From an uncultured Lachnospiraceae bacterium (GTDB taxonomy: Bacteria > Bacillota > Clostridia > Lachnospirales > Lachnospiraceae), in contig URSA01000005.1 in the NCBI GenBank assembly GCA_900550475.1, positions 24,275 through 88,274 on the forward strand: 64,000 nucleotides of DNA, read 5' to 3'. Made by a program: the position numbers. Positions 56,401 to 59,400 of this stretch are shown here, piece by piece. Each line of letters opens with the position of its first letter. Within the stretch, counting starts at the first letter, position 1.

Positions 56401-59400
56401 AGAGGGAATAGTTGGGGTCATGCTTGTTGAGCCAGTAATACTCGTCGAGCACGGAAACACCCGGTGTCTCCAGAGAAGGTACATCCCGGAACATGTCCCA
56501 CATCACCTCAAAATGGTTGTCCATCTCCCGTCCGCCTCTCATAAAGAAGCCCTTTGTCACATCCTTGCGTCCGTCACAGCTGCCGCCGGCCAGCTCCAGT
56601 TTCTCCAGAAGGTGAATATGCTCCCCCTTCATCTGCCCGTCACGCACCAGATAGAATGCCGCGGTCAGTCCGGCAAGTCCCGTACCGATAATGTATGCCG
56701 ATTTCTTGTCTACACCTTCCGGTTTCTCGGGATGTGCAAAAGATTCATAAGTTCCTGCTGAATAGTACATAATGAAAACCTCCTTAAATTCATTTTCTGT
56801 CTTCATTATATCCGTATCCGCAGAGTTTACTATAAACAGAACCGGCTTCCTGATGTGTCTTTTATCAAATGTCCATTTTTGATAAAAAACTGCTTTCTCA
56901 GACCTTGAAGCGGGACAGCGCCTCCTTTACGGAGCCCCTGACCATGGTGCCAAGCTTCTCCACGATCTCCTCCGGCTCCTCCTTCATGTCCTCCTTGATC
57001 CAGTCCAGCATCAGCCCCACAAAAATATAGGAATAAACTCTTGCAATGAACTCCTTGTCCTCCTCGCGCACCGTCATGCCCTCCGCTTCCTCATTGACGA
57101 CGCCCATCAGGAGATTGTCCACCAAGGGCTTCAAATATCTCTCCACCTGCTCCCTGTGCACGCAGCGGTACACATTCATCACAAACGGCTTGTTGTCCCG
57201 CACCGCCTCGAATATCTGGAGAAAGCCCTGCTGCCACGTTTCATACGTTTTCTTTTCCTCCAGCGCCTTTCTGGCATCCTCCAGACAGGCCCACTCCACC
57301 AGATCATAGATATCCTTGAAATGATAGTAGAAGGTCATGCGGTTGATCCCGCAGTCCTCCGCTATGTCATTGATGGTAATCTTCGTCAAAGGCTTTTTCA
57401 ACAGCAGGTTTTTTAACGACTGCTCCAAAGCGCGTTTCGTAACCTGAGACATGGTACACCTCCCGTACTCACTTTCTGACCTTCCGCATCATCACAAGCA
57501 GACCGCCGAATGTCCAGAGCGCTCCGATGTGGATCCACGCACAGTCGATTCCGTTCACCCACGCAGGGTTTCCGAACACGAGAAAGCACTTTGCGATCAG
57601 CATGCCGTACACAAACATTGCGGCGATCCCGGTGAGGGACTCATCCTGCACGCCCCAGCCAAGCAGCATATCTTCCTCCGCACCATTATACCATTCAGCC
57701 CGCACATTTTCCACGAAAACAATTCCCGTTCCATTTGCCGTTCCATTTGCCCCGGATTCCCAAGCAAAAAATCATTGAATTTACAGTTGACTTTTTATGG
57801 GGAAAATGGTATTATCATATTCGCGTGATGAAAACATCAGCCGCGAAAACAGAATATGCGGAAGTGCTGGAATTGGCAGACAGGCAAGACTAAGGATCTT
57901 GTGTTGGTTACAACGTGTGGGTTCAAGTCCCATCTTCCGCAGTGTTTTTTTAAGAAAAAGCCTTGAGTTTCAAGGCTTTTTTCTTTGTCACTATGCACTT
58001 ATCTGCATATGCTTCTTCTCATAAATTGCCGCCGCTATGCACCAGATTACAATGGAGCTGTTCGTGCTGCTCTGGCTCATAACGGACATCCATGTGGCTA
58101 TGGGCATGTGCATAGACTGCGCGATATCCGGAATGACAACGAGCAGCATGTTCCATGTGACCGGATGAAAAACGAGCATCCACCTTGGATAACGGGTTTT
58201 GCCCACAAGCAGCATCACGAAATGAATCCCGATCAGCAATACCATCGGAATATACATGGGAAAAATTGCGATGAGCATATCGTCCTGATAAGCGGTAACC
58301 GCCGTGACTGCAGCCTCTGATCCGATACGCGGGCCCAGATATGTGGTAAACCACGCCAGAGTCGCCGACCAGGTATGGATTGCCAGCGCTACCGCAACGG
58401 TGAATATCCCGAACAGATAATGGACAAATTTTGTTTTTCTGTACTTTGCGTCGATATCCTCATTCAGTGCTTTTACCATAAAGTAATAGAGAAAGCTCCC
58501 GATTGCTCCCAGCCCGACGATCAGTACGGGTCTCCACAATCCATAGGAGCCGGACAGATAATAGGCTCTGTTGAACATTCCCGTGTCCGCCTCCTGCAGG
58601 GGAATGCACCCAAGCAGCCAGTCGCCGGCAGCCATAAGGATACCTCCGATTGCGCCAAGAATACACCATCGGATAAACTTTTCATTTTCTGTCTTCATTT
58701 CTTTCGCCTCCCATTACAGTTCATGATTCGCCTTCATCCCGGACATAGCAGTAGATGGCATCAAAAATAAGGTCTACATTCGTTTGAAGATCGTCTTCAA
58801 AAAAAGTATCCCTGCTCTGATATGCGGTATAAATGGATTTGATAAAATTCACTACCACGCCGGGACTGAAATCCGTGCGGATCCCGGTTATGTACGGGAT
58901 GATTTTTTTGATCCGTTCCATGTCCGGCTCATTTTCAAAATGAACCCCGGCGCCTATGTGGGTCTTGAGCCATATCATATCTTCCAGCGTCAGCCGCAGC
59001 AGAAAATTCGTCTCCGGTCTGAAATATTCCCGATGCCAATCGAGAAATTCCCTGACCGGAACCGTGCTTTTTCCGTTCCGTTTTCCCACAAAATCCGCAA
59101 ACGAACGGTCTTCCAGTTCCTTTATCATGGCGACGGCAAAGCTCTCTTTTGAACTGAAAAAATTATAAAAGGAGCCAACCGATACGCCGGCTTCCTTCGC
59201 CACGGAAGCGACTGTCATTTTCCGGAAACCAATGGTGGTGCTCAGGTCCACTCCGGTCTCCAACAGTTTTTTACGGATTCTATTTCTTTGTTCTTCGGTA
59301 AATCCACCTGCCATATCATCCTACCCCAGCTTAAAATATACAGATCCGTACCAACACGTAAAGAAGGGCAAATGCCACTCCCATGGGAAGAACCTTGCGC

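Follow-up and report, generated by a model that had tools for sequence, protein, structure and literature searches.

A tRNA-Leu(AAG) gene with wobble adenosine, typical of Lachnospiraceae, and its probable conversion to tRNA-Leu(IAG)

Wobble inosine outside tRNA-Arg was long held to be essentially eukaryotic, and bacterial tRNA-Leu with inosine in its anticodon (IAG) is a recent finding tied to Lactobacillales. Here we describe a tRNA-Leu gene with anticodon AAG, hence adenosine at wobble position 34 (A34), on contig URSA01000005.1 of an uncultured Lachnospiraceae bacterium (GCA_900550475.1); the 64,000 nucleotides (nt) of this contig that were analyzed are called the window. The first bacterial tRNA-Leu(AAG) shown to carry inosine at position 34 (I34) was that of Oenococcus oeni, where it replaces tRNA-Leu(GAG) (Rafels-Ybern et al. 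2019, as related in PMC8072771 and PMC8266599). In Streptococcus pyogenes, all of the tRNA-Leu(AAG) carries I34 in vivo; the deaminase TadA of S. pyogenes modifies it, and E. coli TadA does not (PMC11472039, Wulff et al. 2024). Conversion of AAG to IAG has likewise been shown for S. mutans and S. pneumoniae (PMC13249217, Katanski et al. 2026). These cases bear out the statement of the initial annotation that editing by a TadA of expanded specificity has already been reported in Firmicutes.

Published reports place bacterial tRNA-Leu(AAG) in Lactobacillales, with "almost all" cases in Bacilli and Mycoplasma and Prochlorococcus mentioned briefly (PMC13249217), in genera of 60-70% AT (bioRxiv 10.64898/2026.05.15.725136) or in "some Firmicutes species" (PMC8007984). 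No tRNA-Leu(AAG) from Lachnospiraceae or other Clostridia appears in these three reports, the supplement of PMC13249217 included; the surveys of Rafels-Ybern et al. may have it. A literature search combining Lachnospiraceae with inosine or tRNA returned nothing relevant. As a second substrate of TadA, bacterial tRNA-Leu(AAG) belongs to a known kind of system, and its family-wide occurrence in Lachnospiraceae is under-described.

A class II tRNA-Leu gene with anticodon AAG

ARAGORN calls a tRNA-Leu with anticodon aag at 57857-57942 on the forward strand, and the Rfam tRNA model RF00005 covers 57858-57941 end to end (model positions 1-71) at 50.4 bits, against a gathering score of 29 (Table 1). 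Both give the same register and confirm the anatomy initially read from this gene, with an AAG anticodon, U33 and G37 in a CUAAGGA loop closed by a CAAGA/UCUUG stem. The acceptor stem has 7 bp (GCGGAAG/CUUCCGC), the D-stem 3 bp with a D-loop of the G18G19 type (GAAUUGGCAGA), and the T-loop reads UUCAAGU. The variable region (UGUUGGUUACAACGU, 15 nt) is a long arm that folds as a 4-bp hairpin, the discriminator base is A73 and the CCA end is not encoded. With its above-threshold cloverleaf, long variable arm, 3-bp D-stem and A73, this is a bacterial class II tRNA-Leu, whose body is 66-82% identical to tRNA-Leu(CAG) and tRNA-Leu(UAG) genes. Bacterial leucyl-tRNA synthetase relies on the long variable arm, the stem and loop of the D-arm, and A73, and makes no use of the anticodon.

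The closest described counterparts, the streptococcal tRNA-Leu(AAG), have in common with it the AAG anticodon, the class II leucine body, A73 and a loop of the form YUAAGGA. In Streptococcus sp. DD12 and S. macacae (loci L028 and L081; L numbers designate the loci retrieved in this work) the T-loop core and the entire anticodon arm match those of the window exactly, whereas the acceptor, D-stem and variable-arm sequences of streptococcal and window genes differ. The hosts also differ: streptococci are AT-rich Lactobacillales, while the window host belongs to a family of Clostridia and has about 50% GC. In streptococci both I34 and TadA specificity have been demonstrated; for the window tRNA both are predicted.

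Distribution and conservation across Lachnospiraceae

A scan of 185,579 species, each represented by one genome, with the anticodon arm and T-loop core held fixed and position 34 left free, returned at least 129 matches in at least 120 loci. Among the 129 matches listed, to which the genome counts below refer, position 34 was A in 114, T in 15, and neither G nor C in any. The A34 genes are nearly all from Lachnospiraceae, spanning Blautia, Coprococcus, Roseburia, Butyrivibrio, Pseudobutyrivibrio, Dorea, Mediterraneibacter, Eisenbergiella, Lacrimispora, Enterocloster, Oribacterium, Lachnoanaerobaculum and Acetatifactor, as well as Eubacterium ramulus and others; outside the family, A34 was found in two Streptococcus and four Cloacimonadota. 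The versions of this tRNA body with U34 come from other phyla. The same pattern yielded 22 A and one T in a complete scan of the viral database IMG/VR. When all metagenome contigs were searched for versions with G or C at position 34, one C34 gene came up and no G34. The identical anticodon arm is found with U34 in other phyla, and a G34 form is missing both from the genome matches listed and from the metagenome scan. Because of these counts, we regard A34 as fixed on this tRNA body and not as a polymorphism. The initial annotation had implied that AAG is unusual here, a view that does not survive the comparison: judging from these sequences, AAG turns out to be the normal form of this isoacceptor across Lachnospiraceae, though it is rare in bacteria generally.

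Selection on the gene was assessed with the 71 distinct A34 sequences among the matches listed. Acceptor pairs 1-7 and D-stem pairs 10-25, 11-24 and 12-23 are kept in all 71, as is T-stem pair 49-65, and pair 50-64 is kept in 70. Several stem pairs occur in two to four Watson-Crick types. Compensatory variation is seen at acceptor pairs 3, 5, 6 and 7, at D-stem pair 10-25 (U-A, C-G or G-C) and at T-stem pair 50-64 (four types). The variable-arm stems differ in sequence, and 60 of 61 distinct arms still fold to a hairpin. A73 is present in 71/71. The anticodon arm and T-loop core were fixed by the search pattern and so say nothing about conservation. Some genomes hold two or three tRNA-Leu(AAG) copies, and a Blautia locus (L055) has three in tandem. 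Compensated stems, invariant A73, multiple copies and neighboring tRNA-Leu(CAG) genes together argue that tRNA-Leu(AAG) is a working, major isoacceptor and no relic, in agreement with the earlier view that the gene is not decayed.

The tRNA-Leu(CAG) genes deserve a brief description. About 40% of the listed Lachnospiraceae loci have one or two of them within a few hundred bases of tRNA-Leu(AAG), often divergently oriented (for instance L009, L049, L076 and L093). The window copy is solitary, with no adjoining tRNA-Leu(CAG).

The window appears to be one instance of a trait shared across Lachnospiraceae, a family that is dominant in human and animal guts and has a GC content of ∼40-55%. We consider it a serious but still tentative possibility that throughout the family tRNA-Leu(AAG) has become fixed and has displaced tRNA-Leu(GAG); the family would hence have an expanded TadA, which arose either independently of Lactobacillales or through a much older Firmicutes event. 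If true, this would contradict both the near-confinement of bacterial tRNA-Leu(AAG) to Bacilli (PMC13249217) and its restriction to AT-rich genera (bioRxiv 10.64898/2026.05.15.725136), and it would predict, for major gut commensals, TadA-dependent recoding of leucine codons and a broader editing of mRNA at UAAG sites. If confirmed in RNA, the trait would bring some of the most abundant gut bacteria within the range of expanded TadA editing and would offer a second large natural experiment on I34 and leucine codon usage, this one outside AT-rich genomes. For annotation, tRNA-Leu(AAG) in Lachnospiraceae is to be treated as normal and not flagged as an error or pseudogene.

The four Cloacimonadota loci (L035, L040, L104 and L113), all from metagenome-assembled genomes (MAGs), encode tRNA-Leu(AAG) with an encoded CCA. 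At L035 (4293-4486), tRNA-Leu(AAG) directly adjoins tRNA-Arg(ACG), and their loops, CUAAGGA and CUACGGA, differ at position 35 only. These genes may represent an independent A34 expansion in another phylum; if the reading proposed for Lachnospiraceae is true, Cloacimonadota would be yet another independent case.

Decoding of leucine codons

We propose that this functional tRNA-Leu(AAG), the standard isoacceptor of Lachnospiraceae, is probably converted to tRNA-Leu(IAG) by TadA. The proposal builds on the observed gene, its conservation and covariation, the fixation of A34, a loop of the TadA consensus and a substantial usage of CUC. The tRNA would be transcribed from its own putative promoter and then undergo RNase P cleavage, 3' trimming and CCA addition. 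Most likely, A34 would then be deaminated to inosine by the host TadA, which would accept A35 and G37 in addition to the canonical tRNA-Arg(ACG), like the enzymes of streptococci and Oenococcus. The product, tRNA-Leu(IAG), presumably with 1-methylguanosine at position 37 (m1G37) as well, would decode CUU, CUC and, only weakly, CUA, taking the role that tRNA-Leu(GAG) has in most bacteria. tRNA-Leu(CAG), which lies near tRNA-Leu(AAG) in many relatives, would read the dominant CUG.

The CUAAGGA loop, seven nucleotides on a 5-bp stem, fits the YUAMGRA consensus of S. pyogenes TadA (PMC11472039). By this analogy a TadA of widened specificity appears to be the best-supported mechanism, and the likeness to streptococcal tRNA-Leu(IAG) is well supported by the anatomy. 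The canonical TadA substrate, tRNA-Arg(ACG), also presents A34 in a C-U-A-N-G-R-A loop, but it is a class I tRNA with C35, carries another amino acid and is universal in TadA-bearing bacteria, whereas tRNA-Leu(AAG) is restricted to certain lineages. Eukaryotic cytosolic tRNA-Leu(IAG), made by ADAT2/ADAT3, has the same anticodon and the same predicted decoding of CUU, CUC and CUA, and there too A34/I34 replaces a G34 isoacceptor. The enzymes differ: ADAT2/ADAT3 is a heterodimer of relaxed sequence specificity that needs the full tRNA, while bacterial TadA is a homodimer that reads the anticodon loop.

The alternative that survives best is a functional tRNA whose A34 stays unmodified, pairing with CUU by Watson-Crick rules and reading some CUC or other CUN codons by weak A34 wobble. 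CUC would then be covered mainly by another tRNA, either a tRNA-Leu(GAG) encoded elsewhere or a U34 tRNA. We consider this unlikely. Every bacterial tRNA-Leu(AAG) so far examined by experiment (O. oeni, S. pyogenes, S. mutans and oral streptococci) carries I34, with full conversion to IAG, and the loop of the window gene is identical to that of validated TadA substrates. CUC is also common: it accounts for 217 of the 17,193 codons of the window (14% of leucine codons) and for 11% of leucine codons in 94 related loci, a substantial usage that requires a decoder reading C. Further, no G34 sibling of this tRNA body emerged from the genome matches listed, IMG/VR or the metagenome contigs, and in published surveys AAG replaces GAG and does not coexist with it (PMC13249217; bioRxiv 10.64898/2026.05.15.725136). 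ARAGORN found no tRNA-Leu(GAG) in the window, and there was none among 207 tRNAs in 118 related loci (0.85 Mb), a sample biased to the neighborhood of tRNA-Leu(AAG).

Several points nevertheless weigh against editing. E. coli-type TadA is strict in its specificity and rejects tRNA-Leu(AAG) (PMC11472039). Unmodified A34 tRNAs exist, both in O. oeni, whose A34 tRNA-Thr and tRNA-Ser stay unmodified (PMC8072771), and in Mycoplasma (PMC11066159), so A34 alone does not guarantee editing. Like the window gene, Mycoplasma tRNA-Thr(AGU) and the O. oeni tRNA-Thr and tRNA-Ser place A34 in a four-codon box; they differ in remaining A34, in belonging to reduced or AT-rich genomes and in not being leucine tRNAs. 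The two tRNA-Thr genes of the window have anticodon GGT, and nothing comparable to the O. oeni case was seen there. A tRNA-Leu(GAG) gene may lie elsewhere in the genome, beyond the loci sampled. No TadA-like open reading frame was found in the window or the fetched loci by tblastn with an approximate E. coli TadA query or by a deaminase motif search, a result with no bearing on the rest of the genome. Along with the presence and specificity of TadA, m1G37 and the absence of tRNA-Leu(GAG), we infer I34 itself, in its case by analogy with Lactobacillales.

Codon preference does not separate conversion to IAG from an unmodified A34. In the window CUU outnumbers CUC (305 versus 217), giving a CUU/(CUU+CUC) of 0.58, the highest value of eight four-fold boxes (0.11-0.45 in the others). 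The preference is stronger in related genomes (0.71 versus 0.40-0.61 in other boxes), with leucine highest in 88/94 loci. This contrast is non-specific and weak as evidence, because control loci of other phyla carrying the U34 body show the same codon direction (10/13) and two-fold boxes in the window reach values like that of CUU. The CUU preference is what an unmodified A34 would favor, and its direction fits I34 as well.

The tRNA locus and its neighborhood

We retrieved contigs of the same locus by exact look-ups of two genes flanking the tRNA and compared them by BLAST with window positions 52000-64000. The locus was recovered in 12 independently assembled contigs from different samples, all with an identical tRNA-Leu(AAG). 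Five are 100% identical to the window over 52000-64000, among them contig DAWAKK010000004.1 of NCBI assembly GCA_052287915.1, and seven represent strains of ∼97% identity. Upstream of the tRNA, 80 nt are likewise the same in 12/12 assemblies, the ∼97% strains included. Elsewhere, the tRNA is 100% identical to a copy in another Lachnospiraceae MAG (L071) with unrelated flanks and 90-98% identical to many other Lachnospiraceae copies among the genome loci listed. In a BLAST of the window against the 120 listed genome loci, which do not include the window species, the tRNA was the sole match and no synteny was found. The PBP1A homologue of the window has a 99% match in a Logan assembly, and its named relatives (61-76% identity) are all labeled "Lachnospiraceae bacterium".

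Table 1. Features of the tRNA-Leu(AAG) locus and of other regions of the window
Feature	Position	Strand	Basis or remark
tRNA-Leu(AAG) gene, class II	57858..57941	+	ARAGORN; Rfam RF00005 alignment; identical across 12 assemblies; A73 at 57941
Anticodon arm, stem CAAGA/UCUUG and loop C32-U33-A34-A35-G36-G37-A38	57885..57901	+	Rfam alignment: CAAGA 57885-57889, loop CUAAGGA (7 nt) 57890-57896, UCUUG 57897-57901; U33 57891, A34 57892, A35 57893, G36 57894, G37 57895
Anticodon AAG	57892..57894	+	Deamination to inosine is predicted at A34 (57892)
Sigma-70-type promoter-like site, TTGACT-17-TATTAT, TG upstream of -10	57787..57815	+	Consensus scan, 10/12 positions
Terminator-like hairpin	57952..57985	+	Fold -17.9 kcal/mol, z = -4.6, 0/200 shuffles as stable; core GCCTTGA 57960-57966, loop GTT, TCAAGGC 57970-57976, T-run 57977-57982 (U6)
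Strain-variable junction	57944..58005	.	BLAST of window 52000-64000 against L124-L135; gene tables
TetR regulator	56898-57452	-	Part of the 54977-57452 module
Oleate hydratase	54977-56806	-	True start probably 12 codons downstream, giving 597 aa
tRNA-Thr(GGT), first copy	23032-23105	+	74-nt direct repeat with the second copy
tRNA-Thr(GGT), second copy	27034-27107	+	100% identical to the first, 4002 bp apart
XRE/HTH_3 regulator	24468-25001	-	Between the tRNA-Thr copies
Alpha/beta hydrolase	25062-25817	-	Between the tRNA-Thr copies
XRE/HTH_3 regulator	26092-26697	-	Between the tRNA-Thr copies
CAP-domain gene	27606-28532	-	Cysteine-rich secretory protein family
Degenerate tandem repeats	28033-28279		36-nt and 55-nt units, inside the CAP-domain gene

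The initial annotation had also given the gene a strong promoter and a terminator of its own, and this holds in part. A putative promoter, recognized by its consensus match only, ends ∼43 nt upstream of the mature 5' end. No strain differs in it, yet the strains are too close for this to carry much weight. Downstream, a stable hairpin followed by a T-run resembles a terminator, and a flanking A-run potentially makes it bidirectional; a terminator scan of the window did not report it. It belongs to the strain of the window: the variable junction starts 2 nt after the tRNA 3' end, and in seven related assemblies (L128-L130 and L132-L135, ∼2690-5510), which lack the hairpin, ∼2.8 kb encoding an 815-aa LysM-domain protein replaces 62 nt.

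This indel so close to the tRNA is one reason to ask whether the gene is an auxiliary copy carried in by a mobile element instead of a core decoder. Also in favor of such an origin are a GC content of 0.44-0.49 over 48-64 kb (∼0.53 elsewhere in the window), an adjoining oleate hydratase 85-90% identical to proteins labeled Dialister, Faecousia and Erysipelotrichaceae, and viral-contig matches that lie mostly at contig ends, as for tRNAs that border prophages. We nevertheless find a mobile origin very improbable. Strains differ in the neighboring DNA but not in the tRNA or the 80 nt upstream of it, which points to a resident tRNA serving as an insertion hotspot and not to cargo; in addition, the body is a family-typical Lachnospiraceae sequence, and neither an integrase nor an att repeat was noted beside the tRNA.

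A sequencing or assembly error at A34, the refuter envisaged at the outset, or a pseudogene decaying from a GAG or UAG tRNA, has nothing in its favor beyond the general rarity of A34 in bacteria and is refuted: an error is excluded because 12/12 assemblies from different samples carry the identical gene, so that A34 is genuine, and decay is opposed as well by the identical tRNA with unrelated flanks in L071, the 71 distinct listed orthologues with compensated stems and invariant A73, and the several genomes with multiple copies.

Lachnospiraceae-type tRNA-Leu(AAG) also occurs in 18 viral or prophage contigs of IMG/VR (L136-L154). In about half of these, the tRNA lies ≤ ∼300 nt from the end of the locus, which suggests that tRNA-Leu(AAG) often borders integrated prophages.

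Upstream of the tRNA, the TetR regulator and oleate hydratase genes form a pair that recurs in three other loci (L121-L123) with 85-90% protein identity and unrelated neighbors. To judge from these occurrences, the module is probably horizontally mobile, and the oleate hydratase homologues were of no help in placing the host taxonomically; at L121 it adjoins a tRNA-Leu(TAG). The surrounding region of lower GC content (48000-64000) is rich in accessory-type genes, including a LytTR response regulator with a histidine kinase, an ABC transporter, three TetR regulators, a GNAT acetyltransferase, an alpha/beta hydrolase, a DUF6796 protein and an aldo/keto reductase.

Elsewhere in the window, the two identical tRNA-Thr(GGT) genes enclose an interval with a GC content of 0.43 that holds two XRE/HTH_3 regulators and an alpha/beta hydrolase. 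No integrase was seen between the two copies, and the interval has the look of a small island with a duplicated tRNA at its borders. Shortly after the second copy, the CAP-domain gene contains degenerate tandem repeats of two unit lengths.

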